From Candidatus Nanoarchaeia archaeon (GTDB lineage: Archaea > Nanobdellota > Nanobdellia > CSSed11-243R1), in NCBI GenBank assembly GCA_028713895.1, contig JAQTNH010000001.1, positions 181,808 to 245,807 of the forward strand: a stretch of 64,000 nt of DNA. Direction: 5' to 3'. Of this stretch, positions 8,913 to 38,396 are shown piece after piece. A program made the translations under genes and the position numbers. The number at the start of each line of letters is the position of its first letter. Position 1 is the stretch's first letter. The notes beneath the pieces were generated by a model. That model had not been told where the DNA came from and made no database searches. It saw only the letters and a list, made by a program, of their open reading frames with translations.

Positions 8913-9782
8913 GTGATTAAAATCGTAGAACATGAAGAAAAAGTAGAAAAATTCTATACTACAGGCTCAAAAGTCAACCTGGCGGATTTTGATTCAACTG
9001 AGCTAAGAATAGACAATGAGGGATTTCTTTCATTCGGATACTGGGAAAACAAGACTGACAGATATCTTGACGCCACAAAGAGGCTGCTGAAATTTGTGAT
9101 TGAGAACAGCGAGGTAAAAGACGCGGACAGGATTTTGAATGTCGCATGCGGCTTTGGCCCGGAATCCTTTGCTTATTTTGAACATTTCAAGCCGAACGAA
9201 CTGATTGGGATTGACATAGCAAAAGTCCACACTGACTATGCGAACCTGAAAGCCAAGCAGCTTGGCGTGGCTGACAAGGTAAAATTTGTGCACGGAGACG
9301 CGGTTGCGCTGGATTTTCCAGACAGAAGTTTTTCGCACATACTCGGGATAGAAGGGCCTGCGCATTTCAACACGCGCGAAAAATTCTTCAAGTCAGCAGG
9401 GCGGGTGCTCAAGCAGGGCGGAGAACTTCTGCTTACTGACGTCATACTCGGAGAAAAATTCAAAGCATGGAATCCCCTGCACCAGACTGTCCTCAGGGTG
9501 GGGGCAAAGGGATGGGTTGTTCCGATGGCAAACGGGGTCAAGGAAGCCGCTTACAAAAAGCAGCTTGAAGATGCAGGATTTGAAATTGTTTTTTTGAAAA
9601 AAATAGGGGACAAAGTGTTCCCAGGATACAGCAGGAGCTTTGATTCGGAAGTCATACAAAAGCACACAAAGTGCATGGGGTTCATGACTTCAATGGGATT
9701 CACGTTCATAGGAAAGCTGCTCGGATGGCTTTACAAGAAAGGGTTCATAGAATACGTTTACGTGAAGGCGCGGAAGAAATAA
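8913..9782 (+). CDS. Class I SAM-dependent methyltransferase, RebM-like (sugar O-methyltransferase-like)
   Basis: FGYWE motif, SAM-binding loop ILNVACGFG, DAVALDFPDRSF. A GTG start is inferred. It is a paralog of 27671..28522. Confidence 0.75.
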   Translation: MIKIVEHEEKVEKFYTTGSKVNLADFDSTELRIDNEGFLSFGYWENKTDRYLDATKRLLKFVIENSEVKDADRILNVACGFGPESFAYFEHFKPNELIGIDIAKVHTDYANLKAKQLGVADKVKFVHGDAVALDFPDRSFSHILGIEGPAHFNTREKFFKSAGRVLKQGGELLLTDVILGEKFKAWNPLHQTVLRVGAKGWVVPMANGVKEAAYKKQLEDAGFEIVFLKKIGDKVFPGYSRSFDSEVIQKHTKCMGFMTSMGFTFIGKLLGWLYKKGFIEYVYVKARKK

Positions 9783-9787
9783 TTCAT

Positions 9788-10594
9788 TTAGAATTCGTCA
9801 AGCGGGCTTTTGATTTTTTTCAACTCAACATTTGAGACGTGAGTATACCGTTCTGTCGTATTGAGCGATGAGTGCCCAAGCAGGGTTTGTATCTTTCTTA
9901 TGTCAACCCCGTTTTCCAGCAGGTGCGTGGCGTACGAATGCCTAAGTGTGTGCGGGTGGACATTTTTTGTGATGCCTGCGCGCGCTGCAGCGAGAGTCAC
10001 GACTTTTTGTATTGCGCGCTTTGAGAGCTGCTTTCCTTTTGTTGCAAAGATGTATTCAGACGGATACTTTCTGTTCTGCAGATACTCTTTCAGATTTGTG
10101 ATGAATTTGTCAGAAAGAAGAATCATCCTGTCCTTTGCGCCCTTGCCGCTGCGCACCCATCCGGTTTTTTCCTCAAGCTCCAGGTCATTTATCTTCATGT
10201 TGATGCACTCGTTCAGGCGGATGCCTGTTGAGTAAATGAATTCAAGCATGAGCCTGTGCTTTTTGTTTTCAGTTAATTCAATCATGCGCCTGACTTCGTC
10301 TTTTGTGAGAACAACAGGCACCTGCTTTGGAATCTTAGGCGTCTTTATTGCAAAAGCTTTTTTCAGGACTTCGTTGTAAAAGAAAATCAGGGATGATTTT
10401 GCCAGGGCAAGTGTTGCATTTGAAACGCTGCGGCCAATCATGTCAGAAAGATAATTGCGGACATCGTTTTCATCAACAGCAACGGGCTCTTTTTTTATGA
10501 ATTCAAGAAACTTGCGGTTGTAGAACAGATAGGTTTTGATTGTTTCATTGCTCAAGCCGCGCAGGCGTAGTTCGGTTTCAAGCTGTTTTAACAT
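9788..10594 (-). CDS. xerA: Tyrosine site-specific recombinase (XerA/XerC/XerD family)
   Basis: Catalytic R...HxLRH...Y signature: HTLRHSYATHLLENGVDIRKIQTLLGHSSLNTTERYTHV. Confidence 0.85.
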   Translation of the reverse strand: MLKQLETELRLRGLSNETIKTYLFYNRKFLEFIKKEPVAVDENDVRNYLSDMIGRSVSNATLALAKSSLIFFYNEVLKKAFAIKTPKIPKQVPVVLTKDEVRRMIELTENKKHRLMLEFIYSTGIRLNECINMKINDLELEEKTGWVRSGKGAKDRMILLSDKFITNLKEYLQNRKYPSEYIFATKGKQLSKRAIQKVVTLAAARAGITKNVHPHTLRHSYATHLLENGVDIRKIQTLLGHSSLNTTERYTHVSNVELKKIKSPLDEF

Positions 10595-10697
10595 GCCAAA
10601 TTAAACGAACTTTTGGATTATACATGTTTTGGTTTATACAAAATTTTATAAGTGGCGTTTTAGTAGCTTTATTTGGTGGGGTTCTTGAAAGCGTGCA

Positions 10698-11912
10698 ATG
10701 ATGAAAGACATTTATTTTTGCAAAACAGATGAAGAATGGCTCAAACATTCAGAGGAACTGGAATACCCCATACATGTTACGCCATGTTCTATAATAATAG
10801 ACTATGATGATGACAATTGCATTTACAGACAACTTGACAACATACCTGCTGTTGCACGGCTGAACCACATAAAACAGCTTGGCATTGCAAATGAATGCAG
10901 GAATCTGGCAGGCAGCGGCCAGACGCGTTATATTCATTCGCTGATTTGTGCAACAAAAATTGATTATCTGGCGCAGATGAATAACCTTAACAGAGAGCTC
11001 GCAGTCACAGCTGCAATGATGCATGACATGGCAACAACGCCGTATTCTGACTCGGTTTCAAAAAAACTTAAATTGGGCGATGAAGCGAATTTTGAAAGCG
11101 TGCTAAACAGCAGCACTGGGGCGCTTGCATTCCTGGACAAGCATAACATTTCAAAAAAAGAGCTCTGCGACCTTGTGACAGGAAAGGATAAATCCGTGCT
11201 GGGGCAGCTTGTCAGCAGCAAAGGCTCGATTGATGTTGACAGGTGGAGTTATACCATATATGACGCCCAAAGAATTGGAAAACTTTCTTCTGTACTCGGC
11301 AACCCTTATTGCCCAGACCCGTTCAAGTCAATGAAAATTATTGACAACACTGTTGTGTTTGAAGATGTCAACGAAGTACGAAAGTTCCTTGAGACAAGAG
11401 TGTACATGTTTGAATCTGTTTACAGGAACGACGAGCTCATGGCAAAGGAAGCTTTTGTCGGCGAGCTGGCAAAGGAAATGTGGGAAAAAGGGATTATTAA
11501 TAAGTCAAATATTTTCAGACTGGATGACAGCCAATTCGAAAGTTTATGCCACAGATATAATGAAGAACTTTCAGCCCGAATATTCCATGTAGGATATTTT
11601 GACAGTTATGGCAAACTGCCTGCCGGTGAAGAAGAGGTACGGCAATTCATGGCAGGCATCACAGACAGGCCTTTTGTCGTAAAAAAAGGGTTCTCCATGA
11701 ACCCCGCCACAGACACGCCTGTGCTGTTTAAGGGAAAAGTGAAGCCGTACAAAGAGATTGATATGCCGCATTCCAACAGCTTACAGATGAGAGCGGACTC
11801 TTTCAAATATACTGCAGTGTACGGGTTTGAAGAGGACTCAGAACTTGCAAAAGCTGTTCGCAAGGCAGAGGCAAAGTTCGGAAGAGTGAATGCCCCGACA
11901 GAAACTAAATAA
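10698..11912 (+). CDS. HD-domain phosphohydrolase, dNTP triphosphohydrolase (Dgt/SAMHD1)-like
   Basis: H...HD...D architecture: RYIHSL, MMHDMATTPYSDS (compare LLHDIGHxPFSH) and DVDRWSYTIYD (compare DxDRxDYLxRD). Confidence 0.6.
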   Translation: MMKDIYFCKTDEEWLKHSEELEYPIHVTPCSIIIDYDDDNCIYRQLDNIPAVARLNHIKQLGIANECRNLAGSGQTRYIHSLICATKIDYLAQMNNLNRELAVTAAMMHDMATTPYSDSVSKKLKLGDEANFESVLNSSTGALAFLDKHNISKKELCDLVTGKDKSVLGQLVSSKGSIDVDRWSYTIYDAQRIGKLSSVLGNPYCPDPFKSMKIIDNTVVFEDVNEVRKFLETRVYMFESVYRNDELMAKEAFVGELAKEMWEKGIINKSNIFRLDDSQFESLCHRYNEELSARIFHVGYFDSYGKLPAGEEEVRQFMAGITDRPFVVKKGFSMNPATDTPVLFKGKVKPYKEIDMPHSNSLQMRADSFKYTAVYGFEEDSELAKAVRKAEAKFGRVNAPTETK

Positions 11913-11935
11913 GTTCTGACAATCTTGATTTTACC

Positions 11936-12409
11936 ATGATAATCAGAACAGCAAAAATAAAAGATTTGCCAGCTGTGCTTAAACTTGATTTAATGCTGAA
12001 AAAAGACCAGAACAGATACAACAAGAAGTATTTTGCACTTGCAGGTGAAAAGAGCCTGGTAAAAGAAACAAAAAAGTTCCTGAAAGGAAAACTAAACAGC
12101 AAAAAATCGCGCATTTTTATTGCAGAAGCGAATGGAAAAATAATAGGAATCTGCATGGCTGAACTTGAAAAGCGGCCGCCAATATTCAAATACAGGAACA
12201 ATGGTTTTATTGAATCAGTTTATGTCCTGCCTGTGTTCAGAGGAAAAGGAATTGGAACCCTGCTGCTCAAAAGCGCAATTAAATGGCTGAAAAAGAACAA
12301 GATGTCTTTTATCACGCTTGCAGTCCATGAGCAAAATATTCCTGCAATAAATGCCTATAAAAAATCCGGATTTGTTAATTTTTTCAATAAAATGCTGAAG
12401 GTGTTATGA
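11936..12409 (+). CDS. GNAT-family N-acetyltransferase
   Basis: Acetyl-CoA-binding motif VLPVFRGKGIGTLLL and a conserved NIPAINAYKKSGF tail. Confidence 0.8.
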   Translation: MIIRTAKIKDLPAVLKLDLMLKKDQNRYNKKYFALAGEKSLVKETKKFLKGKLNSKKSRIFIAEANGKIIGICMAELEKRPPIFKYRNNGFIESVYVLPVFRGKGIGTLLLKSAIKWLKKNKMSFITLAVHEQNIPAINAYKKSGFVNFFNKMLKVL

Positions 12410-12410
12410 A

Positions 12411-13091
12411 ATGTTGGACTTTGACAAGCTGATTGACGAGCACCTGAAAAAGGAAAATCGTCCGAAAGGGATTGGGAGATATTATCCGAGCGAAGCAGGA
12501 ACCTGCATGCGAAAAATCTGGTACTCGTACAAGTTTCCCTCTGAAGTTGAGCCAGAGCTTCTCAAGATTTTTGAGATGGGAAACATAGTCCATAATTTTG
12601 TTGTTGAAGTTCTGAAGAGCGAAAAAGTCAAGGACATTGAGCTTCTGGAATCCGAATTCCCGTTCAGGGAAGAGGTTGAAGATTTCATGATTTCCGGCAG
12701 GATTGACAATCTCATCAAAATTAAGGCGAGCGGGAAGATTTACCTGGTCGAGGTCAAGTCAACGAAGAGCATTGATTATGTAAAGGAAGCTTCACCGCAC
12801 AATGTGCAGCAGCTCCAGCTTTACATGCACTTCACAGGGGTGCACAACGGCTTTTTGCTTTACATCGACAAGTCAAACCTGAAGACAAAGACTTTTGAAA
12901 TAGAGTACAGCGAGGAAGAGGCAAAGCGGATTCTTGAGCGCTTCAAGTCGCTGCACAAGCACCTTAAAGAAGAAAACCTTCCCGAAGCAGAGGGCAGAAG
13001 CCACAAGGAAATCAAATGGATGTGCGGCTACTGCGAATACAAGGACAGGTGCCACACAGACACGCCAAAGGCAAAACACGAAGAGGAATAA
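12411..13091 (+). CDS. Cas4-like PD-(D/E)xK nuclease with a 4-Cys cluster (DUF83/RecB-like)
   Basis: D...EVK (GRIDNLIKIKASGKIYLVEVKS), QxxxY (QQLQLYMHF), an N-terminal Cys (GTCMRK) and a C-terminal CGYCEYKDRC. No cas genes are nearby. Confidence 0.7.
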   Translation: MLDFDKLIDEHLKKENRPKGIGRYYPSEAGTCMRKIWYSYKFPSEVEPELLKIFEMGNIVHNFVVEVLKSEKVKDIELLESEFPFREEVEDFMISGRIDNLIKIKASGKIYLVEVKSTKSIDYVKEASPHNVQQLQLYMHFTGVHNGFLLYIDKSNLKTKTFEIEYSEEEAKRILERFKSLHKHLKEENLPEAEGRSHKEIKWMCGYCEYKDRCHTDTPKAKHEEE

Positions 13092-13538
13092 TTATTTTTT
13101 CATTTTCTTAATAATGCGCCAGGCAACTATCCCAAAGACAGCAAGGATTATCAGCAGTGTAACGAAAACAGCTATCTTGTCCTGGAAGTTTGTTGCGACG
13201 CCTTCCATCACAAGTATTGCGCCGGTAGCCAGCCCTGTTATGCGTATGAAGTTCTCGCTCAACAGCAGCCCGACAAGCAGTAATATGAATCCTATCGGCG
13301 CAAAGATGTAGAAGCGCATCTGGTTGTACGGCTTCATGGCGTCTTCATATGCCTTGTTGCATGAGTCCCAATATGCCTGGTTTTCAGCATCGGTTTTTGA
13401 CTCGACAGCAATAGGCTTGCAGTAAGTGTCATATCTTGGCTCTTCAATGAAGATGCTTGTCCCTACATTGACAAGCGCTACAAAAATAATTGTCATAACT
13501 ATGCTGGCCAGTATTGTGAGCCCGAGCTTGCTTACCAT
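13092..13538 (-). CDS. Membrane protein (3-4 TM)
   Basis: 148-aa hydrophobic ORF. Confidence 0.5.
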   Translation of the reverse strand: MVSKLGLTILASIVMTIIFVALVNVGTSIFIEEPRYDTYCKPIAVESKTDAENQAYWDSCNKAYEDAMKPYNQMRFYIFAPIGFILLLVGLLLSENFIRITGLATGAILVMEGVATNFQDKIAVFVTLLIILAVFGIVAWRIIKKMKK

Positions 13539-13629
13539 GAGGTATCCAAAAGCCGGGCATATTTATAAAGTTCTGCTAAGAGCCGGCAGAAAACGCACAT
13601 TTAAAAAATATAACCGAGTTCTAAAAAAT

Positions 13630-13995
13630 ATGATTTTATTAAAAGGGCTAAAAAGACGAGCACGCAGGCAGGCAAGGGAGACGCTGGACACTCTCATAGT
13701 GGAATCCGTCTGCAAGGACTGCATCCCAAAAACAAGATATGGCATACAGGATTATTTGCGGGAGCAAGGATTTGAAGTCAGTGACGAGACAATCGGGAGG
13801 CATGCGAAGAAACTGCTGTACTGCTTAACTTACAGGGAGATAAGAAAAGAATCGAATACGCTTGTTTCTACAGAATTCAGAATGCCCGACCGCACCCAAT
13901 TTTACCTTCCAAAAGATGCTAACATGCGTGAAAAAGCACTGCGCAGATTTGCGTATTCCAAATTACAAAAGTTGTATAAATATGAAGTGAGTTAG
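13630..13995 (+). CDS. Hypothetical basic protein
   Basis: The internal start MILLKG was chosen because the longer ORF (from 13426) overlaps the convergent membrane-protein gene. A TATA-like TTTATAAA lies at ~13562. Confidence 0.35.
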   Translation: MILLKGLKRRARRQARETLDTLIVESVCKDCIPKTRYGIQDYLREQGFEVSDETIGRHAKKLLYCLTYREIRKESNTLVSTEFRMPDRTQFYLPKDANMREKALRRFAYSKLQKLYKYEVS

Positions 13996-14016
13996 AAAAC
14001 TATTGAGGTGATAGTC

Positions 14017-14088: not shown

Positions 14089-14111
14089 TAATATAACTTA
14101 TTTTTCTTTTT

Positions 14112-14513: not shown

Positions 14514-14640
14514 AAAAAAACAAAATCTGCTTTGGCTTATAAAGTTTACTACTGAGGGGTGTATACACTTCTTTTTATTGGGGCTGTGTTTTGGGTTTTA
14601 TACAACATTTGTTGGAGGTGAAATATTGGAAAAGAACAAA

Positions 14641-15363
14641 ATGATTTTTACGGGAATGATTATCCTTGGAATCTGCATTCTGGCGGCAATTGGCATTATC
14701 GGCTTCGGGGTTGTTTCATGGACAAGCTCGTTCAGCCAGAAGACAATCAGCGCGACAGGCGAGGCAGAGAAGATAGTTGCGCCTGACCAGGCTGTGATAG
14801 GCATAGGCTACACTGTAACAAAAGCCACTGCCGCAGACGCGCAGAGCGACATGAACACAGTGATGGACAAGGTGATTGCTGGCCTGAAAGCAAGCGGAAT
14901 CGCGGACGCAGACATCAAAACAACTTACTTTGACGTAAGCCCGGCATACAACTGGAGCAGCGGAACCTCGGAGATTTACGGCTACACCGCAACACATAAT
15001 ATAGATGTCAAAACAACAGAGTTCAGCAAGGCGGGGGCAATCATTGACACGGCAACACAAGCTGGCGCGAACCAGATAAACAGCGTGAGATTTGAGCTGA
15101 AAACAGACACTGAGAAAACAATAAAGCAGGAACTGTTCACACTGGCGTCACAGGATGCGCGCACAAAAGCTGACAGCATTGCAACAGGGCTCGGCACATC
15201 AGTCAAGAGCGTGAAATCTGTTTCAATAAGCGACTACTATTACCCGCCAATCATGTATGCATATGACTCAGTTTCAAAAGCAGAGGCTGGAGTTGCACAG
15301 ACAAGCGTGTCGCCAGGCGAGCTGACAGTCTCAGTGAGCGTAAATGTTGAATTCTTAATTTAA
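14641..15363 (+). CDS. SIMPL-domain (DUF541) membrane-anchored protein
   Basis: N-terminal TM helix followed by the SIMPL pattern (IGIGYTVT...TTYFDVSPAYNW...ATHNIDVKT...SVRFEL). A GGAGGTGA Shine-Dalgarno site is upstream. The long ORF-track N-terminus from 14350 is rejected. Confidence 0.7.
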   Translation: MIFTGMIILGICILAAIGIIGFGVVSWTSSFSQKTISATGEAEKIVAPDQAVIGIGYTVTKATAADAQSDMNTVMDKVIAGLKASGIADADIKTTYFDVSPAYNWSSGTSEIYGYTATHNIDVKTTEFSKAGAIIDTATQAGANQINSVRFELKTDTEKTIKQELFTLASQDARTKADSIATGLGTSVKSVKSVSISDYYYPPIMYAYDSVSKAEAGVAQTSVSPGELTVSVSVNVEFLI

Positions 15364-15389
15364 TCCTTTTGTTTTCTTATTTTTGTTTT

Positions 15390-15589
15390 TTTTCACTCTG
15401 AAAAAGTTTAAAAGGCAGTATCCTCTCAATTTAAGACAGGGAAATGTTGATGGTTGAGGTGGAAAAATGAATTCTAAGGGAGAGAGCAGACTAAATTTAA
15501 TTCTAAACAGGTTCGGAGCGTCAAAAGCATCCGCATCACTGAAGATTTTCCTCGCACTCATCATTTTCGGCATAGCGTCAGCTTTCCTC
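15390..15589. repeat. Copy 1 of a ~200-bp duplicated promoter plus signal-peptide module
   Basis: Near-identical to 21856..22054. It carries the TATA box, the Shine-Dalgarno site GAGGTGG, and a first 41 codons identical between the two giant genes. Confidence 0.9.
15406..15412 (+). promoter_or_regulatory. TATA box (TTTAAAA) of giant surface protein gene 1
   Basis: AAAGTTTAAAAGG lies 55 nt upstream of the ATG. GAGGTGG at 15456..15462 is the Shine-Dalgarno site. Confidence 0.5.
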
Positions 15590-18500
15590 CTCGGCGTTGT
15601 CTTCGCAACACACAGCTATTCGCCAGCCCCGGCAACAGTTCCAAACTGGACAAGTTCATGCGGCAACAGTGACGAAGGTCCAGGACCTGGAGATGCAATG
15701 ATAAACCTGACAAAAAATATCACGCTGACAGCAACAGGCAATGACACTTCATATCTCAACTTAACGCTCCTCAACTCAACTTCAAATTATACAATCCAAG
15801 ACTTCCTCACATTCTACCCGGCAAGCACGCTTAGCTGTTTAAAATCATCAGACACTTTAATTGAATGCACCAACACAACTGCAAATGTTCTGGCAGGGAC
15901 TGGAATGACAGTCCAGTTTAATACATCAGTCAACAGGAGCAGGCTTTGCATGGCAAACGGGCTGGACATGTTTTATTGGAATATATCAACCCTGGACAAT
16001 GAAACCAGTTTTAATTCTACGATATTGATAGACAAATTTGATTCACAAAGCCCAATGCCTTCAGGCATGATGATAACATCAACCAAATACACAAACGGTT
16101 CAAATTGGTTTGTAACAAGCCCGTATGATCTAACAGTTCCAACCGGGACAGACGGGAGCGGTTCAGGAATAAACACAAGCTCATGCGTGTATACAACGAA
16201 TATGAGCGGAATGCCTACTGTATGGACTGCAGCTACGTATGCAGACCCCAACTGTACAAAAACAGGAATAACAATTGCAGACGGTGTTTTGCACCAATCA
16301 AGTTTAGCTGTATCTGACATTGCAGGCAACCGTGGCGGATCTGGCTCATTAGACATTTATGGAGACGCATTAGCTCCAACAATCACATGGAATTCCCTTG
16401 CCAGCGCATACAAATTAGGCACAATAGTCACGCTTAATGTAACAGCCGCAGACGCGGGCTCAGGAGTCAATACGTCTGCGTTCACATTTAATGTTTCCTG
16501 CACAGGCAGCTCAAACGGCTCGCTTGGCGCGCTAACATGCACGCCGGGCTTGGTTCCCAAATCAACAGAATGCACACAGGCCTGGACAGCCCCAGATGCA
16601 GTTGCAAACTGCAACATAACTGCAAACGCAACAGATGCCCTCGGGCAGACAAATACAAGCATCGCAAACCTGAACATTGACTTTGGATGCGGAGACAACA
16701 TTTCATATTCAACCGTATTAATCCATAATATAACAGGATGCACCTCAGGCGCTCTTTTCATCAATACAAGCAATTTAGTTCTTGACTGTGACGGATATGC
16801 AATAGATGGATACGATGTCACAGAATCAGGCATTGAAATATCCCCAGGAATCGAAAATGTAACAATCCAAGACTGCATTATTTGGGGTTACACTGACACA
16901 GCCGGCATCGTGGGCAACGGACTTGGCAGCAGCGACGGCAACATAAGCATAGTATCCAACACATTTTATAGCAATGGACAGGCTATCCTCTTGAATGCAA
17001 CTTCAGCAGGAAGCAATGATTATGACATAAACAGCAATATAATCTACAACACAACAGATGCTTCAAAGGATGCAATCTATGTTGGAAGTTCGGGAAACAT
17101 CTACATAGACCACAATGAGATTTATAGTGCTGCCAGCACAGGAATATCTGTGCGTTCATCAAGCGGAACAATCTCAAACAATGTAATAAACAACACTCTT
17201 ACAGGATACGGCATTTCAACAAATGCATTCGCAGGAGTTATAGAACTCAATAATGTTTCGTATGCAGAACGCGGAATCAATTATTTTGCATCAGGCCCCA
17301 TTGCGAACATTACAAACAACACTTTGAATATCAATGACTACGGATTATACATCTCTTCAAGCATGGACATATCAGTATGGCATAATAATGTATATAATAA
17401 TACTATGAATGTTCTTTCAACTAGCCCCATTGAATTGTCCTATAGCAGCGAAGGAAACTACTGGGGACACGATGGATGCCCTGTGTTCAGTGCAGGGATA
17501 GATTCAAACTCAGCAACTGTAATCGACAGCTACGCTTACAATACATCAAGCGGATGGCTGACAACAACACCAGCGTTCTGCGCGCCGCAAATAATTACAT
17601 TTGCAGATGTTTTCAGTGGCTTTGCATATGCGAACATAGGAATCGGAGAATCAATGGCGATGCCATTTGTTCTGGATGTTTATGTTAACATAACAAACAC
17701 AACACCAGCATGGGTGAATCTTACAGGAGCTGGCGGCAGTTTGTGCATGGAGAGCTATGCGCCTAATGTAATGCTCAGCTATGAGGATTTGGGAGACGGC
17801 CCTGTATTCAACGCAGAGTGCACATTAAACAAAACAATACTTGCAACGCTGGGTCCACAGCATAACCTGACTGCGGTGGCATACTATGTGTCGTCACCAG
17901 CTATAACAAACACACAAAATTTCACATTGAATTCTGACTTTGAACGCCCAGTTATGAACTTTGGATGGTGGGACACAACAGGCGGGGACGGAACTCCTGT
18001 AAAATTTGTAAGCCCTGAGAACATGTTTAACAGGCAGGACATATTTTTCTCGCCAACAGACAATGCCGTACGGATAAGAGTTAATGTAACAGACAACAGC
18101 GTAGTGTCGTATGTGGAAGCAAATATGACTTCGCTTGACAGCGCAATGGCACTGACAGGCGGAAACTGCAGCGGAGTTGTAAACCTTACAGGTGTCGGCG
18201 GAAATTTCTGGGAATACAACTGCAGCCTTGGAGGCTTCAACAGAACGTTCATACAGGATGTCCTGAACGGAGGCACATTCAGCCCGGTATTCGAAGGACA
18301 GACAGACGTACAGATAGCAGCACATGATGTATTCGGAAACCCGACTGCAATAGCGTATAATACTTCTGAAATCACACCAGTGGAATGCGTGGGATACGTA
18401 GAGGGGCAATGCATGTCACTTGTTACACCGATAGTCATACATGACATTGAAGTGATGGGGCCGACAAGCATCAGCGCCATACATGACCAGATAGAAGAAT

Positions 18501-21500: not shown

Positions 21501-21826
21501 TAACAGTGGACATGAACACGCCAAAAGCAGTTGACCTTGACGGAGACGGGATAAACGACCTTGAACTGAAACTGACAAAGATAATAGCTGGACGGGCGGA
21601 TTTGACGCTTACAAAGATTACAGCGACAGGAGCTGCAGCAGAGCCTGAAGAGGTTACAGTTGAAACGCCGGCAGAAGTTCCGACAGAAGAACCGCAGCCA
21701 ACAGTGACTGTAATCAGCGAAGAAATCAAGGCAGTTTCAGGCAACTACGGGATATACATTGTAGCTGCAATAGCCTTGCTGGGAATCATAGCAGTAACGT
21801 ATTACGTGTTCTTCAGAAAGAGGTAA
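15467..21826 (+). CDS. Giant cell-surface protein (2119 aa): signal/anchor N-terminus, parallel beta-helix (NosD/pectin-lyase-like) repeats, Ig-like repeats, fibronectin-III-like domain, Ca-binding DxDGDGxxD loop, C-terminal TM anchor
   Basis: Hydrophobic N-terminus. Beta-helix repeats are visible as NVINNT / NNTLNIN. About 5 tandem ~95-aa repeats end in DTTAP. The C-terminus is YIVAAIALLGIIAVTYYVFFRKR. The protein is full of N-x-S/T sequons. Confidence 0.9.
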   Translation: MNSKGESRLNLILNRFGASKASASLKIFLALIIFGIASAFLLGVVFATHSYSPAPATVPNWTSSCGNSDEGPGPGDAMINLTKNITLTATGNDTSYLNLTLLNSTSNYTIQDFLTFYPASTLSCLKSSDTLIECTNTTANVLAGTGMTVQFNTSVNRSRLCMANGLDMFYWNISTLDNETSFNSTILIDKFDSQSPMPSGMMITSTKYTNGSNWFVTSPYDLTVPTGTDGSGSGINTSSCVYTTNMSGMPTVWTAATYADPNCTKTGITIADGVLHQSSLAVSDIAGNRGGSGSLDIYGDALAPTITWNSLASAYKLGTIVTLNVTAADAGSGVNTSAFTFNVSCTGSSNGSLGALTCTPGLVPKSTECTQAWTAPDAVANCNITANATDALGQTNTSIANLNIDFGCGDNISYSTVLIHNITGCTSGALFINTSNLVLDCDGYAIDGYDVTESGIEISPGIENVTIQDCIIWGYTDTAGIVGNGLGSSDGNISIVSNTFYSNGQAILLNATSAGSNDYDINSNIIYNTTDASKDAIYVGSSGNIYIDHNEIYSAASTGISVRSSSGTISNNVINNTLTGYGISTNAFAGVIELNNVSYAERGINYFASGPIANITNNTLNINDYGLYISSSMDISVWHNNVYNNTMNVLSTSPIELSYSSEGNYWGHDGCPVFSAGIDSNSATVIDSYAYNTSSGWLTTTPAFCAPQIITFADVFSGFAYANIGIGESMAMPFVLDVYVNITNTTPAWVNLTGAGGSLCMESYAPNVMLSYEDLGDGPVFNAECTLNKTILATLGPQHNLTAVAYYVSSPAITNTQNFTLNSDFERPVMNFGWWDTTGGDGTPVKFVSPENMFNRQDIFFSPTDNAVRIRVNVTDNSVVSYVEANMTSLDSAMALTGGNCSGVVNLTGVGGNFWEYNCSLGGFNRTFIQDVLNGGTFSPVFEGQTDVQIAAHDVFGNPTAIAYNTSEITPVECVGYVEGQCMSLVTPIVIHDIEVMGPTSISAIHDQIEEFSGCIWGANCSACGPGETPETDGCYEAAQLCFLFGSQTTNFSNVANFSDVNFSVEMQVNMSCLEEAGGIVTDIPMPTGHTTMMKVNFSSIDFNSQETAGKLAQLPENLNVYISPAGTFGDSYIMLNSSYFEMLNASATIVFYHLPFISAPYVYGIGGAVTATPTITWAPFNDDLWDGRPAGNLTFNVGGFSGYEITDSIKPTVVIDAPAAGTNLTVNTTWLNMTLNGTGTQISNVLVYDGAVLKYNYTANESMCLNVTLGSELFFCNISLTGLADGTHTLTVQAFDFGGNESPGNNNTTTRAFIIDSSAPNITITAPVSNAVLNAAMLPYNITGTAADNYVGISNITWYIDNAEQGTVDMSPLPLWWTSWNPSDGVYNITAQSCDYFSNCANATAVTLITVDALKPKISITYPTNNLNISSSTLVVNTTTNETNPNRLLVYVNGALTNNTTYSSGEQNNTIVLTLADGTYVVYATATDTAGNSNTTSNYTVMIDTTAPTLNIITPTNNSYQNRNNTIVNWTVNDTNYNYTYIELYNSTDDLAANGTVPYTFGPYTYPNYIVNWTDVPDEVYRLVLVAYDIVANNRTETVYNITVDTTAPKIAVSYPANNSNSTSSTVTINVTTNETNANSMKLYVGGLLVNTTSYTAGNNKVKTFTVSMADGNRTFYANATDLAGNYNATGTYYIIVDTTAPAMSSIFADTITNESADIHVTTNEIANCSVDFGTDTSYGSVASSVSGSGALSLAIPSAAQGTLYYYRWNCTDVYGTSGVSAGYTFTTANYQTDTIVNTTTTNMTFNFTEDGTNTTNAGVEISLNETIDATVKIAKGIAPTANFSASGITGLGTYYTIESDEINSTNAEWLMIKLYYEDSQVPIGINESTLRLYWYNTTSSAWEIITPGGVDTVNNYVWGNTTHFSEYTIAGAADTEVTAPTSPGGSSGGIPSAGLTHEVNLDVQVTYTQAGMAVKDKINFTLNGEKHVLTLSSMMIDQIVVDISSLSQRITVDMNTPKAVDLDGDGINDLELKLTKIIAGRADLTLTKITATGAAAEPEEVTVETPAEVPTEEPQPTVTVISEEIKAVSGNYGIYIVAAIALLGIIAVTYYVFFRKR
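19090..20570 (+). repeat. About 5 tandem ~285-nt (95-aa) Ig-like domain repeats inside giant gene 1
   Basis: Repeating (D)TTAP linker followed by V/I-rich beta strands, e.g. PKISITYP..., PTLNIITP..., PKIAVSYP... Confidence 0.6.
20840..21640. repeat. Copy 1 of an ~800-bp duplicated C-terminal module
   Basis: About 90-95% identical to 26628..27420. It encodes TANYQTDTIVNTTTTNMTFNF...LRLYWYN...VDLDGDGINDLELKLTKI. Confidence 0.85.
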
Positions 21827-21862
21827 GCCTCCTTTCTTTTTTATTTTTTTATTATTTTCACT
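21827..21862 (+). terminator. Oligo-T tract (archaeal-type terminator) after giant gene 1
   Basis: TCCTTTCTTTTTTATTTTTTTATTATTTTCAC directly follows the stop codon. Confidence 0.4.
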
Positions 21863-22054
21863 CTAATAAAGTTTAAAAGGGAGCATGCTCTATTCTAAAG
21901 ACAGGGAAATGTTGATGGTTGAGGTGGAAAAATGAATTCTAAGGGAGAGAGCAGACTAAATTTGATTCTAAACAGGTTCGGAGCGTCAAAAGCATCCGCA
22001 TCACTGAAGATTTTCCTCGCACTCATCATTTTCGGCATAGCGTCAGCTTTCCTC
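21856..22054. repeat. Copy 2 of the duplicated promoter plus signal-peptide module
   Basis: See 15390..15589. The TATA box is at 21872..21878. Confidence 0.9.
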
Positions 22055-25000
22055 ATCTATGGAGTTTATGCCATAGACTTAAGGCACATCAGCGATGGCA
22101 ATGCAATCGCAGCAGATAACGAGACAATCGAAATTCCTGCGGAAGAAATTGCAGCCGAAGTTTCAGAAGCCACAGCACTTCCTGAAAAGCCCCAGGCAGT
22201 ATTTGCTGACAGGCCGGGTTTAACGCCGAAAGAAAAAGATATCAATGCAAAAAACACATTTGAAAGAAAATTTCCGTCTTTAGCTAACGAGTATATCCTG
22301 TTCCTTAAAAGCCCGATGAAGGTTGAAGGGCCATCCATTGCGTCTGTAACAAATTCAGAACAGCTGCAGAAAACAATGTCTGACAGGGGAATCAAGACGT
22401 ATAATACAATACCTGAACTCAATGCAATCATTGCCTATGTGCCTGATTCGCAAATTGACTCAGTAAATAGGATTCCTGGAGTGGAAAATGCTGAGCCCAT
22501 CAAATATTTTCATTCCCTGCTTAATGTAAGCATACCCACAATAAATGCGGATGATGTATGGGATTTGGGATACAATGGCACAGGCGTTGATGTCTGCATA
22601 ATTGACACGGGCGTTGACAAGTGGCATCCAAGCATCAAGCAGGCAACCGCGTCTGCAGATTTCACAACACACGACTGGTGCATTGACCTGGGCTTACAGA
22701 ATCATGGCTATGACGAGGGAGTATTCCAGTCAGTTGTCGGCTCAAACAGACAGTTTAACATGTCGCTGAATGTAACAAACTCAACAATGAACTGGCTTGA
22801 AGTCGGAGTGACATCTTATTACAACGGCAACTGGAGCGGTGATGAGCAAAGGTATGACATGACAATCTTTTGGCCAAATAACACAAAAATAAATGACACA
22901 AATTCCATTCCAAATGCAAATATGCGCATTGACGATGACTTAAATTATTGGGCGGTTCTGAACCTTTCAATCGGCAGTGTAACCGGGCTTTATACAATCC
23001 AAATAGATGAGACAAACATCGGAACCAGCATGGATTACCCGCTTGTTATTTGGGGCTCAAATGTAACATGGCTGTACACTAACTTTTACGAATACAGCGG
23101 TTACATCTGCGATACATTTAACACAACATACTCAAATTTTAATCCATACGAATCAACTGACAGCGTCTTTAAGGACAGGCGCGCATTCAACAACATTGTT
23201 GCAAATGATGACGCTGGACACGGGACTCATGTAGCAGGAACAGTAGCAAGCAACAACACAACTTATGAAGGAGTTGCGCCCGGCGCAAACTTGTATATTG
23301 CAAAAGCTCTTGACATGTACGGGATGGGTACAACACCAGGAGTTATAGACGCAATACTCTGGTGCCAGAGCAAAGATGTTGATTTAATAAGCATGAGCCT
23401 TGGAGGAGCTGCAGGACAGGGATGCAATGATTCTGAAGTTGTAATTTTGGACTCTGTGGTTGCAGACAATATGCTCCCAATTATTGCCGCGGGCAATGAA
23501 GGAGAACATGGCGCAGTTACAATAGGCTCGCCCGGCTGTGCAAGAAATGTTTTGACAATCGGCGCAGTTAATGACAGCGATGTTATAGCATGGTTCTCAA
23601 GCCAGGGGCCGACAAACGACACAATGCCACGAATAAAACCTGAAGTTGTTGCGCCTGGTGTAGCAATCTATTCAACAATACCAACAGGCAGATGGGACAA
23701 TATGCAGGGGACATCAATGGCAACACCGCATGTTGCGGGTTTGGCTGCCCTGATCAGGCAGGCGCATCCAACATGGACGCCTGGACAGATTAAAGCGGCA
23801 ATCATAAATTCCGCCAACCAGACAAAAGTTGGGTTTGGAGCGCATAATACTACATATGGATATGGAAGAGTTGATGCACTTGAAGCAGTCAATGACACGT
23901 GGGTGGCATCAATAAATATGACAAACGACACAATAGACAGCACTTTAAAAATGAATCTTACAGCTGCAAAAAACCTGAAGGTAACAATATACTGGGAGGA
24001 AAACGCATCAGACAGCCACAGCAGGATATATCTTAACCTGACAAACAGCAGCGGTGATATTGAGGACGAATCAAGTGACAGAAATGAAACAATACAGCTG
24101 GCTGCAGTAGCTTCAGCAGCAGCTGGCGAATACCACATAAGAGTAATCGGGGACCATGTACACGGTACAAAGATTGTCTGGATTGCAACAAATGTACCTT
24201 TATCCGAATCTATACCTCCTGTGCTGACGATTGTTTCGCCGCAGAACGCAACTTACGGAGCGTCTGTTGAGTTCAATGTTTCCACAAACGAGGCAGCAAG
24301 CTTATGCGTTTCCAGCCTGGACGGGGCAGCAAATGTCTCGATGGGCAACACTTCGTTAACTGCATGGAACTACACAAGCTCAGGCATGACAAGCGGCCTG
24401 CACAATGTAACGTTCTACTGCAATGACACTTCAGGAAACTGGAACCTTACACCTGTACGCTATTTCACATCTGACATCAGTGCGCCGGTTGTAACAATAA
24501 TATCACCGCAGGACACAACTTACGGAAAGACAGTTGCATTCAATGTTTCCACAAGTGAAGCGGCAGCGTGGTGCAACATCACAATGGATGGAATTGTAAA
24601 CATTTCGATGAGCAACACTTCAGCAACGTCATGGGCATACACAAATTCCAGCATGATAGACGGAGGGCACAATGTGACTTTCAGGTGCAATGATTTGTAC
24701 AACAACACAGGCACAAATCTGACCAATTTCACAGTTGATGCGGTTGAACCTTTGATAACAATTGTTGTGCCACAAAACACAACTTATGGAATCAACGTCA
24801 CATTTAACATAACCACAAATGAAGCAGCGTCAGCCTGTAATTTCAGCCTGGACGGGGCTGCAAATGTCTCAATGACAAATATTTCAACAACTGCGTGGGG
24901 ATACTTTAAGACAAACATGGCTGAGGTGCTGCATAACCTAAAGTTTTACTGCACTGACCTGTACGGCAACACAAATATAAGCGCCACTGTGTACTTTTCA

Positions 25001-27601
25001 GTCAACACGAGCTTCTTAGCAACAATAACATATCCTGCAAACCAGCCGTATAATACTGTAAACATGACTGCCAATGTCTCCACAACTGCAAATGCAGATG
25101 TGTGCCTGATAAGCATTGACGGCGGAGCAAATGCTTCGATGGGCAATTCAACTCCAACAGCATGGAACTACAGCATGATAGACTTGTCAGAAGACGTACA
25201 CAATCTCAGCGTGTGGTGCAATAACAGCGGCGGAACCCTTGCAACAACAGCAACAGGCTCATTCACAATTGATTTGACAGAACCGATGATAACGATGGTT
25301 GCGCCCGGAAACACAACGTACGGCACAACTGTGGTATTCAATGCAACAACAAATGAAGCAGCGTCATGGTGCAACTTCAGCCTGGACGAAACGACAAATG
25401 TGAGCATGACCGGAGCTGCAGCTTCATGGGCATACACAAATTCAAGCATGACAAATGGAGGGCACAATGTGACTTTCTACTGCAGCGACTTGGCAGGGAA
25501 CGCCAACAACAGCGCAATAAGAATTTTCACAGTTGATGCGATTTTACCTGTGATAACAATAAATTCCCCTGCAAATACGACATACAATACAACCACGACT
25601 TTGTTTAATGTTACAGCAAACGAAAATGCTTCATGGTGCAGGTATAGCCTGGACGGGGCTGCAAATGTCTCAATGACCAACAGCTCGATGACATCATGGT
25701 TTAACTCCACCACTGTAGCAGAGAACAACCATAATGTTGTGTTCTACTGCAGCGATGTTTACAGCAACATCAATTCTACAACTGCGCTGTACTTCATCAC
25801 AGACACAACAAAGCCGGTGATAGCAATAGTCTCGCCAGGCAACACAACGTACGCCAACACAACAATCTGGTTCAACATAACAGTAACAGAAACGCGCCCG
25901 GACAACTGCGTCTACAGCCTGGACGAAGCAGCAAATGCGACAATGACAAGGAGCGGAAGCGCATGGAATGCTTCAAAGAATGACTTTAGCGGAGAAACAC
26001 AGCACAACATAACATATTACTGCAATGATACAGCCGGAAATGTGAATGGCAGCGCAATGAGATACTTTGTAGTTGATACTGTCGCGCCGCGCGTTACGAT
26101 ACTCTTGCCGCTGAATAACACAAAATTCAATAACCAATATGTCAATTTCAGCGTAAATGCGTCTGACGCCAACATTTTACAGCTCAAGATGATAGAAGAC
26201 AATTATGTAGCGCAGACAGTGAATCTTTCCAGCTCAGGAATAACTAATGTAACACTGGACATCGGCCCTGGAACGCATGTAATAAAAGCGAATGTCACGG
26301 ACAGCGCAGGAAATTACAATTTAACTGACAGCACCATAGTTTTGATGGATACCATAGCGCCGGTAATGTCAGGCATCAGCGAAGAAGACATAAATGACAC
26401 CTGGGTAACGTGGCTGGTAACAACAGATGAAAATGCAACCTGTTTTGTAGAGTATGGCACCGACACAGGATATGGAAGCACAACAGGGAGTTCAACTGGA
26501 GAAGGTTCGCATGAACATACTTTAGCTGGGATTGATGCAGCAACGCTTTACCACTACAGATGGAACTGCACTGATACATACAACAACAGCGCAGTAAGCA
26601 GCGATTACACATTCATAACAGCAAACCACCAGACAGATACGATTGTCAACACAACAACAACAAACATGACATTCAATTTCACAGAGGACGGAACAAATGT
26701 AACAAGTGCAAAGATTGAGATTTCGCTCAATGAAACAATTGATGCGACTGTCAAAGTTACAAAAGAAATCACTCCGACTGCAAATTTCAGCGTGTCCGGC
26801 ATAACCTTGATTGGAACGTACTACACAATTGAGTCAGATGAGATTAACTCGACAAATGCCGAGTGGCTGATGATAAAGCTGTACTATGAAGACTCGCAGG
26901 TGCCAATCGGGATAAATGAATCCACATTAAGACTGTACTGGTACAACGCAACAAGTTCAGCATGGGAATTGGTTACTCCTGGCGGGGTTGACACAGGGAA
27001 CAACTATGTATGGGGCAACACAACGCACTTCAGCGAATATGCAATCGGTGGAGCAGCAGACACAGAGGAAGTAACACCAACATCACCAGGCGGCTCAAGC
27101 GGAGGAATACCTTCTGCGGGACTGACTCATGAAGTCAATCTTGACGTGCAGGTGACATACACGCAGGCAGGAATGGCTGTACGGGATATGATAAACTTCA
27201 CTTTGAACAGAGAGAAGCACGTGCTAACCCTCACTTCAATGATGCTGGATCAGGTTGTAGTTGACATAAGTTCGCTTTCGCAGAGAATAACAGTGGACAT
27301 GAACACGCCAAAAGCAGTTGACCTTGATGGAGACGGGATAAACGACCTTGAACTGAAACTGACAAAGATAATATCTGGACGGGCTGATTTGACGCTTACA
27401 AAGATTACAGCGACAGGAGAAACAGCAACACCTGAAACAGCTGCAACTCAAGCGCCTGCAGAGGCACCAGCAGAGGTTTCTACAGAGCAGCCAACAGGAA
27501 TCCAGGCGGTTTCAAGCAACTACGGAGTATACATTGTAGCTGCAATCGCACTGGCAGGGCTTGGAGTATTGATATATTACGTGTTCTTCAGAAAGAGGTA
27601 A
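21932..27601 (+). CDS. Giant surface-anchored S8 (subtilisin-like) serine peptidase (1889 aa) with about 8 Ig-like repeats and a shared C-terminal module plus TM anchor
   Basis: S8 catalytic triad: Asp in VCIIDTGVD, His in HGTHVAGTVAS, Ser in GTSMATPHVAGLAALI. The N-terminus is identical to gene 1. Eight ~95-aa repeats each carry a conserved Cys pair. The protein is dense in sequons. The C-terminal anchor is IVAAIALAGLGVLIYYVFFRKR. Confidence 0.9.
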   Translation: MNSKGESRLNLILNRFGASKASASLKIFLALIIFGIASAFLIYGVYAIDLRHISDGNAIAADNETIEIPAEEIAAEVSEATALPEKPQAVFADRPGLTPKEKDINAKNTFERKFPSLANEYILFLKSPMKVEGPSIASVTNSEQLQKTMSDRGIKTYNTIPELNAIIAYVPDSQIDSVNRIPGVENAEPIKYFHSLLNVSIPTINADDVWDLGYNGTGVDVCIIDTGVDKWHPSIKQATASADFTTHDWCIDLGLQNHGYDEGVFQSVVGSNRQFNMSLNVTNSTMNWLEVGVTSYYNGNWSGDEQRYDMTIFWPNNTKINDTNSIPNANMRIDDDLNYWAVLNLSIGSVTGLYTIQIDETNIGTSMDYPLVIWGSNVTWLYTNFYEYSGYICDTFNTTYSNFNPYESTDSVFKDRRAFNNIVANDDAGHGTHVAGTVASNNTTYEGVAPGANLYIAKALDMYGMGTTPGVIDAILWCQSKDVDLISMSLGGAAGQGCNDSEVVILDSVVADNMLPIIAAGNEGEHGAVTIGSPGCARNVLTIGAVNDSDVIAWFSSQGPTNDTMPRIKPEVVAPGVAIYSTIPTGRWDNMQGTSMATPHVAGLAALIRQAHPTWTPGQIKAAIINSANQTKVGFGAHNTTYGYGRVDALEAVNDTWVASINMTNDTIDSTLKMNLTAAKNLKVTIYWEENASDSHSRIYLNLTNSSGDIEDESSDRNETIQLAAVASAAAGEYHIRVIGDHVHGTKIVWIATNVPLSESIPPVLTIVSPQNATYGASVEFNVSTNEAASLCVSSLDGAANVSMGNTSLTAWNYTSSGMTSGLHNVTFYCNDTSGNWNLTPVRYFTSDISAPVVTIISPQDTTYGKTVAFNVSTSEAAAWCNITMDGIVNISMSNTSATSWAYTNSSMIDGGHNVTFRCNDLYNNTGTNLTNFTVDAVEPLITIVVPQNTTYGINVTFNITTNEAASACNFSLDGAANVSMTNISTTAWGYFKTNMAEVLHNLKFYCTDLYGNTNISATVYFSVNTSFLATITYPANQPYNTVNMTANVSTTANADVCLISIDGGANASMGNSTPTAWNYSMIDLSEDVHNLSVWCNNSGGTLATTATGSFTIDLTEPMITMVAPGNTTYGTTVVFNATTNEAASWCNFSLDETTNVSMTGAAASWAYTNSSMTNGGHNVTFYCSDLAGNANNSAIRIFTVDAILPVITINSPANTTYNTTTTLFNVTANENASWCRYSLDGAANVSMTNSSMTSWFNSTTVAENNHNVVFYCSDVYSNINSTTALYFITDTTKPVIAIVSPGNTTYANTTIWFNITVTETRPDNCVYSLDEAANATMTRSGSAWNASKNDFSGETQHNITYYCNDTAGNVNGSAMRYFVVDTVAPRVTILLPLNNTKFNNQYVNFSVNASDANILQLKMIEDNYVAQTVNLSSSGITNVTLDIGPGTHVIKANVTDSAGNYNLTDSTIVLMDTIAPVMSGISEEDINDTWVTWLVTTDENATCFVEYGTDTGYGSTTGSSTGEGSHEHTLAGIDAATLYHYRWNCTDTYNNSAVSSDYTFITANHQTDTIVNTTTTNMTFNFTEDGTNVTSAKIEISLNETIDATVKVTKEITPTANFSVSGITLIGTYYTIESDEINSTNAEWLMIKLYYEDSQVPIGINESTLRLYWYNATSSAWELVTPGGVDTGNNYVWGNTTHFSEYAIGGAADTEEVTPTSPGGSSGGIPSAGLTHEVNLDVQVTYTQAGMAVRDMINFTLNREKHVLTLTSMMLDQVVVDISSLSQRITVDMNTPKAVDLDGDGINDLELKLTKIISGRADLTLTKITATGETATPETAATQAPAEAPAEVSTEQPTGIQAVSSNYGVYIVAAIALAGLGVLIYYVFFRKR
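24210..26350 (+). repeat. About 8 tandem ~270-290-nt Ig-like repeats, each with 2 conserved Cys, inside giant gene 2
   Basis: Repeating pattern P(V/L)(I/V)T(I/M)VSPxNTTYG...NV(S/T)TNEAA(S/A)xC...SLDGAANVSM...HNVTFYC(N/S)D... Confidence 0.7.
26628..27420. repeat. Copy 2 of the duplicated C-terminal module
   Basis: See 20840..21640. Confidence 0.85.
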
Positions 27602-27640
27602 AACCTCCTTTCTTTTTTATTTTATTTTTATTGCAAAATA
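27602..27640 (+). terminator. Oligo-T tract after giant gene 2
   Basis: AACCTCCTTTCTTTTTTATTTTATTTTTATTG. The same sequence follows gene 1. Confidence 0.4.
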
Positions 27641-27670
27641 TTTATAATGCCACCTAAATTAGTTCTTGGC

Positions 27671-28522
27671 ATGAACCAGCATGAAAAAGACGTGGAAAAT
27701 TTCTATTCAAAAGGCGCGCGCAGGGTTGTGAAGGAAGGCGAGAATTTCAAGCATTTCTCTGAGGGGTTTATCTCATTCGGATACTGGGAGCCTGGGGACA
27801 CTTATGTTGACGCTGCAAAGCGCCTGCTCAGGTTCTTCATTGACAACAGCGGAATAAAAAAGGCAGGCAGGATTTTGAATGTCGCATGCGGATACGGGGC
27901 TGAGTCATTCGCGTACTTCAAGAAGTTCAGGCCAGGCGAGCTGATTGGGATAGACATAACCCAGGCGCATGTTGATTACGCAAACTGGAAAGCAAAAGAG
28001 CTTGGTGTTGCGAAAAAAGTAAAGTTCGTTCATGGCGATGCGGTTGCGCTGGATTTCCCTGACGCAAGCTTCTCGCACATACTCGGGATAGAAGGGCCTG
28101 CGCATTTCAACACGCGCGAAAAATTCTTCAAGTCAGCAGGGCGGGTGCTTAAAAAGAAGGGGGAACTTCTGCTCACTGACATAATTTTGGGAGAAAAATT
28201 CAGAAAATGGAACCCAGTCCACCAGATTGTTCTAAGGGCAGGAGCAAAAGGATGGGTTGTTCCAATCATAAACGGCATCAAGGAAAAGGAATACGTGAAG
28301 CAGCTTGAAGGCGCGGGATTTGAAATTGTTTTTTTGAAGCGCATCGGCGACAAAGTGTTCCCTGGCTATGCAGGGCATTTTACAGAAGAAAAAAGAAAAG
28401 AGAACAGGAAGCGAATGAGCTTCTTTGCAGAACTGGGGCTTACAAAAATAGGAAGGATGCTCGGATACCTTTACAGGAAAGGGTTCATCGAGTACATCTA
28501 TGTAAAGGCGCGGAAGAAATAA
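27671..28522 (+). CDS. Class I SAM-dependent methyltransferase, RebM-like, paralog 2
   Basis: About 80% amino-acid identity to 8913..9782. An ~80-nt DNA stretch is near-identical (28049..28130 versus 9310..9390). The start MNQHEK aligns with paralog 1. The alternative start is 27647. Confidence 0.75.
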   Translation: MNQHEKDVENFYSKGARRVVKEGENFKHFSEGFISFGYWEPGDTYVDAAKRLLRFFIDNSGIKKAGRILNVACGYGAESFAYFKKFRPGELIGIDITQAHVDYANWKAKELGVAKKVKFVHGDAVALDFPDASFSHILGIEGPAHFNTREKFFKSAGRVLKKKGELLLTDIILGEKFRKWNPVHQIVLRAGAKGWVVPIINGIKEKEYVKQLEGAGFEIVFLKRIGDKVFPGYAGHFTEEKRKENRKRMSFFAELGLTKIGRMLGYLYRKGFIEYIYVKARKK

Positions 28523-38382: not shown

Positions 38383-38396
38383 TATACTGCAGGATA
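38383..38396 (+). promoter_or_regulatory. Palindromic box TATACTGCAGGATA (copy 2)
   Basis: Preceded by CGTTAAATTTAAAAGC (BRE/TATA). Here the GGTGGGGTTCT leader is replaced by GGTGCTATAAAG. Confidence 0.5.

Follow-up and report, generated by a model that had tools for sequence, protein, structure and literature searches.

Is a block of DNA that is bracketed by two copies of a gene, with a recombinase gene at one edge, a mobile island, or is it ordinary chromosome in which two old paralogs have exchanged a piece of sequence? The question is raised by a 64,000-nt stretch from a metagenome-assembled genome of a Candidatus Nanoarchaeia archaeon (GenBank assembly GCA_028713895.1, contig JAQTNH010000001.1, positions 181,808 to 245,807), which we call the window and number from its first letter. 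Here, two genes for RebM-like methyltransferases, MT1 and MT2, enclose about 19 kb of sequence, and a gene for a tyrosine recombinase abuts MT1. A preliminary description of this DNA proposed that MT1 and MT2 had undergone recent gene conversion or recent duplication, that the block between them could be an integrated or recombining island with the two copies as its boundaries, and that the enzymes might alternatively methylate the glycans of surface proteins encoded within it. We consider it likely, with good confidence, that the locus as a whole is best explained by a pair of old paralogs that carry a recent, short conversion patch and lie in an ordinary chromosome.

Results

MT1 and MT2 share an exact tract of 77 nt

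MT1 (8913 to 9782, plus strand; MDD5181901.1/MDD5239035.1) starts with GTG and encodes a class I S-adenosylmethionine (SAM)-dependent methyltransferase of 289 amino acids (Pfam Methyltransf_25, Methyltransf_11 and Methyltransf_31). Its paralog MT2 (MDD5181912.1/MDD5239046.1), on the same strand and with the same class of domain, is given a different start by each of two NCBI annotations, namely the upstream ATG at 27647 (27647 to 28522, 291 amino acids) or the ATG at 27671 (283 amino acids). Both open reading frames were found where the preliminary description had placed them (8913 to 9782 and 27671 to 28522), and the genes form direct repeats with a spacing of 18,740 nt. The proteins are less alike than the ∼80% identity first claimed: they are identical at 193 of 284 positions (68%), and the figure of 81% is that for positives. 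Beyond the tract described next, the genes differ at 240 of 772 aligned sites (69% identity).

Within this diverged pair, a run of 77 nt is exactly the same in both copies (9333 to 9409 in MT1, where it encodes SHILGIEGPAHFNTREKFFKSAGRV, and 28073 to 28149 in MT2, both on the plus strand). The core of about 80 nt that had been called almost identical is thus confirmed, and it is in fact exact: the quoted string occurs twice with 0 mismatches, where shuffled sequences gave an expectation of 0 occurrences. When all sites were shuffled (10,000 trials), the longest identical run averaged 17.7 nt and reached 41 nt at most, and a codon-level shuffle that held the amino acid differences fixed matched the 25-codon run in 1 of 50,000 trials. 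At degenerate codons that specify the same residue in both proteins, 40% differ synonymously outside the tract, while inside it 25 consecutive codons pass without a difference.

The decisive evidence for conversion comes from the comparison with relatives, which are represented by short metagenomic contigs with an overall alignment identity to the window of ∼78 to 83%. Three of these carry an MT1 ortholog (L096, L097, and L012; ∼80–81% nucleotide identity to the window) and two an MT2 ortholog (L004 and L013; ∼78–83%). Across the tract MT1 and MT2 show 0 differences in 77 sites, whereas MT1 differs from its own orthologs at 10 to 12 sites and MT2 from its own at 6 (L004) and 10 (L013), mostly synonymously. 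MT1-type and MT2-type sequences taken from different contigs differ at 7 to 14 of the 77 sites, and the outgroups at 23. In ortholog pairs the tract evolves at 0.55 times the rate of the whole gene; at that rate MT1 and MT2 should differ at ∼13 of its sites, and the Poisson probability of observing none is ∼2e-6. In addition, the glycine of the SAGRVL segment is encoded by GGG in both window copies, and the position is Ala or Asn in seven of the seven other sequences compared; the GGG codon is a derived change that both paralogs carry and that, among the sequences compared, is found in this genome only.

On either side of the tract the genes follow orthology. Outside it, 86 quartet sites support the grouping (MT1, L096/MT2, L004), while the two alternative groupings receive 19 and 18, and 62 sites in the 5′ 410 nt of the gene favor orthology. 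Because the paralogs agree inside the tract while the flanks keep to their orthologs, the 77-nt identity points to short-tract conversion; this is the pattern by which short non-crossover conversions between old paralogs are usually recognized. The first option of the preliminary description, recent gene conversion between MT1 and MT2, is strongly supported by these comparisons of sequence. In a comparison directed at the donor, the tract has 6 differences from L004, 10 each from L013 and L096, and 12 from L012, and either copy could have been the source.

The remainder of the genes, 3′ of the tract (alignment columns 505 to 870; window ∼9415 to 9782 and ∼28155 to 28522), gives a nearly star-like pattern among the four sequences, with 24 quartet sites for orthology, 13 for concerted evolution, and 11 for the third grouping. 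This star-like 3′ half may be the trace of older conversion events.

We considered whether the identity could have arisen with no recombination at all, if a conserved catalytic motif were under strong purifying selection and subject to codon bias; the preliminary description had named selection of this kind as an account that would tell against its reading. The family is indeed most conserved where the tract lies (an eight-sequence alignment has invariant columns from H142 to L166), and the nucleotide divergence between close orthologs is lower within it (0.08–0.16) than elsewhere (0.22–0.24). However, orthologs that encode nearly the same peptide accumulate their 6 to 12 differences there mostly at synonymous positions, the outgroups reach 23, and MT1-type/MT2-type pairs drawn from different contigs show ordinary synonymous divergence over the same 77 sites. 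The single match in 50,000 codon shuffles and a derived Gly codon missing from seven other sequences likewise speak against selection as the sole cause, which we judge highly unlikely.

Could the tract instead have been made by the assembly? The genome was assembled from metagenomic data, and assemblers commonly use a k-mer length of 77 nt, so that a local collapse, cross-polishing, or a mis-join at a shared k-mer might be suspected. Against this, two separate assemblies contain identical MT1 and MT2 sequences in the same order. Contig JAQTPB010000006.1 of GCA_028713185.1 (36,007 nt) corresponds to window positions 3045 to 39051; over the 35,478 nt compared (3045 to 38522) it is collinear with the window and differs by 10 single-nucleotide polymorphisms (SNPs), with 0 in the methyltransferase genes. 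The other assembly encodes the same proteins on a contig of 956,240 nt, and the arrangement has thus been recovered twice. Both methyltransferase reading frames are intact, and each copy resembles its own orthologs on both sides of the tract, which argues against a swapped join. An artefact of this kind is extremely improbable.

Each copy has its own orthologs in conserved local order

A phylogeny of the methyltransferases, one of the checks proposed at the outset, was computed by neighbor joining from 45 homologs. It resolves separate MT1 and MT2 clades, each with orthologs: MT1 groups with P0038, and MT2 with P0002, P0007, and P0019, while P0004 and P0008 fall outside both.

Synteny with the related contigs, also proposed as a check, shows that both ends of the block stand in a conserved local order and that the interior differs in part. 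At the left end, the MT1 orthologs of L096, L097, and L012 are convergent with a XerA ortholog (92–93% identical) at the same 5-nt spacing as in the window, and L096 keeps the C-terminal end of the DEAD-box helicase upstream of its MT1 ortholog (in the window 7624 to 8901, plus strand, left of MT1; Pfam DEAD and Helicase_C). The right end of the block is followed in the window by p131, a 131-amino acid protein (28580 to 28975, plus strand), and by a P-type cation ATPase (28978 to 31518, minus strand; Pfam E1-E2_ATPase). In L013 the order is MT2 ortholog (87%), p131 (78%), and ATPase (92%). L004 reads SIMPL protein (89%), one surface protein of 956 amino acids, MT2 ortholog (82%), and p131 homolog (76%), then an extra gene of 239 amino acids and the ATPase (88%). 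p131 is accordingly a conserved downstream partner of MT2, 76 to 78% identical and in the same position in L004 and L013, and the ATPase is 88 to 92% identical in the same two contigs.

Since the related contigs carry orthologs of each copy in the same local order, the duplication would predate the split from the organisms to which those contigs belong. The second option of the preliminary description, a recent duplication, is refuted by the identity of only 68% between the copies and by the separate orthologs that each of them has in related contigs.

A more distant relative, L006/L007, has preserved within ∼25 kb the set of genes that the window carries at 4 to 34 kb, namely those for SWIB, DUF378, an MnmA-like protein, a XerA-class recombinase, one methyltransferase, SIMPL, p148, a VTT-domain protein, and a giant protein. 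The segment from p148 and SIMPL to the methyltransferase is inverted there relative to the window.

The recombinase beside MT1 resembles archaeal XerA

The tyrosine recombinase gene (9788 to 10594, minus strand, 268 amino acids) is convergent with MT1 and lies 5 nt from its stop codon, as first described. The earlier label "XerA-like" for its product is also borne out. It scores 259.6 bits against NCBIfam NF040815 (NF040815.2, recomb_XerA_Arch; equivalog cut-off 220), and its top match in the PDB is XerA from Pyrococcus abyssi (4A8E, E 3e-48). All six catalytic residues are kept: R126, K151, H215, R218, H241, and Y250 align with R135, K160, H226, R229, H252, and Y261 of P. abyssi XerA, of which R135, K160, H226, H252, and Y261 have been described as catalytic (PMC3646895), and R229 of the 4A8E chain was counted from the conserved tyrosine-recombinase pattern. 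Archaeal homologs number in the thousands, Methanoperedens XerA among them, at 53 to 60% identity. On the basis of these matches, we identify the protein as a housekeeping-type archaeal XerA.

In L006/L007 the XerA-class gene adjoins the same MnmA-like gene that is found 3 kb from xerA in the window; the two recombinases are 38% identical, and both score above the cut-off of the XerA model. XerA relatives in two further contigs (L014 and L015; 70–72% identity) have different neighbors and are therefore uninformative on the block. A scan for dif sites as 11-6-11 imperfect inverted repeats, covering the 64 kb of the window out of a ∼1-Mb genome, returned chance-level candidates only, none of them paired around the block. 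The dif site of Thermococcales lies away from xerA (PMC2958812).

The block is continuous with its surroundings

If the block were an integrated or excisable element of ∼19 kb, the methyltransferase copies would be its direct-repeat ends and the adjacent recombinase its integrase, or else the repeats themselves would loop the block out. Several features look compatible with such an element. The direct repeats contain a 77-nt exact core, in principle enough for homologous recombination, and MT1 has a tyrosine recombinase gene as its immediate neighbor; part of the interior varies, with one surface-protein gene in a relative against two in the window and another gene beside XerA in L096; and the GNAT acetyltransferase gene is an outlier in GC content.

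The repeats, however, are full-length genes at 68% identity, with their own orthologs and with conserved neighbors on the outer and inner sides. The recombinase fits the XerA equivalog model and not a mobile-element integrase model, its orthologs in the related contigs hold the same position next to MT1, and in the distant relative a XerA-class gene sits next to the same MnmA-like gene. The two assemblies are collinear, and deletion of the block would also take out xerA. A direct-repeat search of the whole window found the diverged methyltransferase genes as the only bracketing repeats, with no att or dif-like repeats flanking the block. No tRNA gene lies near it, the sole one in the window being at 59,993, and the Rfam search that located it returned nothing else. 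The tract itself overlaps no Rfam family and contains no dif-like palindrome in the Rfam search and the 11-6-11 scan.

Composition gives the same impression of continuity. The GC content of the block (0.43–0.45) shows no break from that of the flanks (0.446–0.447), and both GC content at third codon positions (GC3) and tetranucleotide usage of the block genes other than the two giant ones match the flanks (tetranucleotide r 0.95 from the HD-domain gene to SIMPL). No plasmid genes were seen in the Pfam annotation. A scan of viral contigs with two block genes yielded weak matches to the Cas4-like protein (29–34% identity) and none to the HD-domain protein, and PADLOC returned generic-domain matches only. 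No chimeric MT1/MT2 protein occurs among 217 homologs. Likewise, a scan of metagenome contigs (80 of 98 related loci kept) turned up no additional close relative and no chimeric methyltransferase, and a scan of genome contigs for relatives gave one bacterial match, at 52%.

An island with the methyltransferase copies as its direct-repeat boundaries is not supported, in view of the conserved junctions, the housekeeping XerA, the lack of att repeats in the window, and the even GC content, and we regard it as very improbable. A related proposal keeps the block in the chromosome and has the copies recombine repeatedly, occasionally looping out or amplifying the 18.7-kb segment with xerA and the giant genes. 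This is a distant prospect. If it were true, such events would give a DPANN population a reversible variation of its surface-protein repertoire, and a hot spot of recombination active over a long time would have left its marks in the star-like 3′ half of the methyltransferase genes and in the patches of identity between the giant genes.

The giant surface-protein genes exchange sequence

Much of the block is taken up by two giant genes on the plus strand. The first (15467 to 21826) encodes a surface protein of 2119 amino acids with Pfam beta-helix and Ig-like domains, and the second (21932 to 27601) one of 1889 amino acids with subtilase S8 and Ig-like domains. Around their starts the two genes are 92.5% identical over 226 nt (15368 to 15592 and 21833 to 22057), a stretch that includes 99 nt of upstream sequence as well as codons 1 to 47, and their last 1,093 nt are 85% identical (20768 to 21856 and 26555 to 27632). 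Exact repeats of 106, 90, and 66 nt connect the second gene with the first gene and its upstream region. All exact repeats of at least 30 nt in the 64-kb window belong to either the methyltransferase pair or the giant-gene pair, and paralog exchange therefore looks general in the region.

At the same locus L004 has one homolog of 956 amino acids where the window has two giants. The locus looks like one of fast-evolving surface proteins with conserved ends and a variable middle. Tetranucleotide usage of the giant genes correlates with that of the flanks at r ∼0.6 with unchanged GC content, a deviation that probably stems from amino acid composition. As a biological lead, this pair of surface-protein genes, which is unlike its counterpart in a related contig in gene number and gene size and shows mutual exchange, is the more useful one.

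Function of the methyltransferases

The best match of the methyltransferases to a solved structure is RebM (3BUS; for MT1, E 1.3e-18 over residues 25 to 181), and MitM and a D-glucose O-methyltransferase (6UV6) also match; "RebM-like" is a fair label of similarity. The enzymes could, as the preliminary description suggested, O-methylate the glycans of the neighboring giant surface proteins, a role that would be compatible with gene conversion between the two copies. The nearest structures do include sugar O-methyltransferases (RebM, 3BUS, and 6UV6), MT2 starts 45 to 69 nt after the second giant gene, and its L004 ortholog follows the single surface-protein gene of that contig. On the other hand, MT1 is not beside a surface-protein gene, nor is the single methyltransferase of L006, and MitM, to our knowledge, is not a sugar methyltransferase. 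The family is spread over DPANN archaea and many bacteria, and the neighbors of distant homologs are heterogeneous (CMAS, YhhN, FMN reductase, SmpB, B12-radical SAM, the tRNA-related MetRS/Dus, and the Fe-S genes NifS/NifU), with no glycosyltransferases or glycosylation genes in the loci checked. Glycan O-methylation, being unsupported by gene neighborhoods, appears a doubtful assignment.

Other genes of the block and the rest of the window

The genes that the preliminary description had listed for the block, those for the HD-domain, GNAT, and Cas4-like proteins and the two giants, are all present, but the label "HD-dNTPase-like" corresponds to no more than a weak HD match. The protein in question (10698 to 11912, plus strand, 404 amino acids) matches Pfam HD with an E value of 1.5e-6, and its score against the dGTPase model is far under the cut-off. 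It is followed by the GNAT acetyltransferase (11936 to 12409, plus strand, 157 amino acids; Pfam Acetyltransf_1), whose gene is the sole GC outlier of the block (GC 0.354, GC3 0.38). Eight of the 10 SNPs between the two assemblies fall within 59 nt (11975 to 12033) in the N-terminal part of this gene.

A stand-alone Cas4-like PD-(D/E)XK nuclease comes next (12411 to 13091, plus strand, 226 amino acids; Pfam PDDEXK_1 and Cas_Cas4), with 52 bits against TIGR00372, where the cut-off of 65 is not reached. The conserved small protein p148 (13092 to 13538, minus strand) is 88% identical to its L006 homolog, and in L006 also it adjoins the gene for the SIMPL/DUF541 protein. The latter (14626 to 15363, plus strand, 245 amino acids as annotated; Pfam SIMPL) is 89% identical in L004 and 79% in L006. 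The block includes three small open reading frames.

To the right of the block, window positions ∼38000 to 46000 have a low GC content (0.34–0.38 against ∼0.45 elsewhere) and many small open reading frames, several of which are preceded by a conserved promoter-like element of ∼45 nt (TTTAAAAAC...TATACTGCAGGATAT...GGTG). Repeats associated with this stretch lie at 34199, 38358, 42896, and 43763, and the 36-kb contig of GCA_028713185.1 ends inside it, at 39051. If any region here is variable or acquired, this stretch is a more promising choice than the block bracketed by MT1 and MT2. Further on, short degenerate repeats occupy 47675 to 47931 as GTCAACAAGTTCGACA-like units at spacings of 9 to 16 nt. 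The 37-nt repeat family that spans this interval has further copies, at 65% identity, in the giant genes at 20837 and 26624.

Discussion

We propose the following history. An ancient duplication, before the split from the organisms of the related contigs, would have produced two RebM-like class I SAM-dependent methyltransferase genes, which lie as direct repeats on a nanoarchaeal (DPANN) chromosome. Later, homologous recombination between the copies, without crossover, may have moved a patch of 77 nt from one to the other, erasing all synonymous differences within it and leaving one derived Gly codon in both. A RadA-type non-crossover recombination is the mechanism that we infer, together with its timing. 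The DNA between the copies would be normal chromosome, with the chromosome-dimer resolvase XerA, a few conserved genes of small size, and two giant genes that evolve fast and exchange sequence with each other.

A number of points weigh against this account. The tract sits in the slowest-evolving part of the gene, where ortholog divergence is ∼0.55 times the gene average, and for that reason selection contributes to its similarity. The neighbor-joining tree takes in partial sequences and carries no support values. From short contigs, none of which spans the block, we infer both that orthologs of MT1 and MT2 are linked in one sister genome and that sister genomes hold the whole block. At L096:2-118, xerA has a divergent neighbor whose product begins like a membrane protein and matches no open reading frame of the window; because this other gene takes the place of the HD-domain gene in L096, the part of the block interior next to xerA is not conserved. 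Finally, rare deletion or circular forms of the block may exist, the comparison resting on assembled contigs.

The result would mean that short-tract homologous recombination operates between dispersed paralogs in a reduced DPANN genome. It also advises caution in annotation: where a tyrosine recombinase is a housekeeping XerA, its presence together with a repeat need not mean a mobile island. Beyond annotation, the case matters little.

How does the locus compare with known systems? With att-flanked genomic islands and integrative elements it has in common the direct repeats around a block and the tyrosine recombinase gene at one edge. In such elements the repeats are duplicated target sites. 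Here they are diverged but intact paralogs, and the enzyme is a XerA of the housekeeping type. The block has neither a tRNA target nor an anomalous GC content, and relatives preserve both of its junctions. The likeness to archaeal XerA/dif chromosome-dimer resolution (PMC2958812, PMC3646895) lies in the equivalog score, the similarity to the P. abyssi protein, and the catalytic residues, although no dif site was identified in the 64-kb window and nothing connects XerA with the repeated methyltransferase genes. The class I SAM-dependent domain is shared with RebM-type sugar O-methyltransferases (3BUS), which provide the closest solved structure, but the relationship is distant, and the genes studied here have no natural-product or glycosylation gene context.

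The closest parallel is gene conversion itself, which is well documented between prokaryotic paralogs, for example for duplicated mtrA in methanogens (PMC4632066), and recurrent cases of which have been surveyed (PMC6053082). As in those conversions, the paralogs are closer to each other over a segment than to their orthologs, the flanks follow orthology, and the segment is a conserved one. The differences are that the tract is only 77 nt long, that the copies stand 18.7 kb apart and otherwise differ at 31% of nucleotides, and that the DPANN host is known only from metagenomes, with long-lasting recurrence merely hinted at by the star-like 3′ half. The case is an ordinary one, a further example, with a very short tract, of the conversion already known between paralogs.

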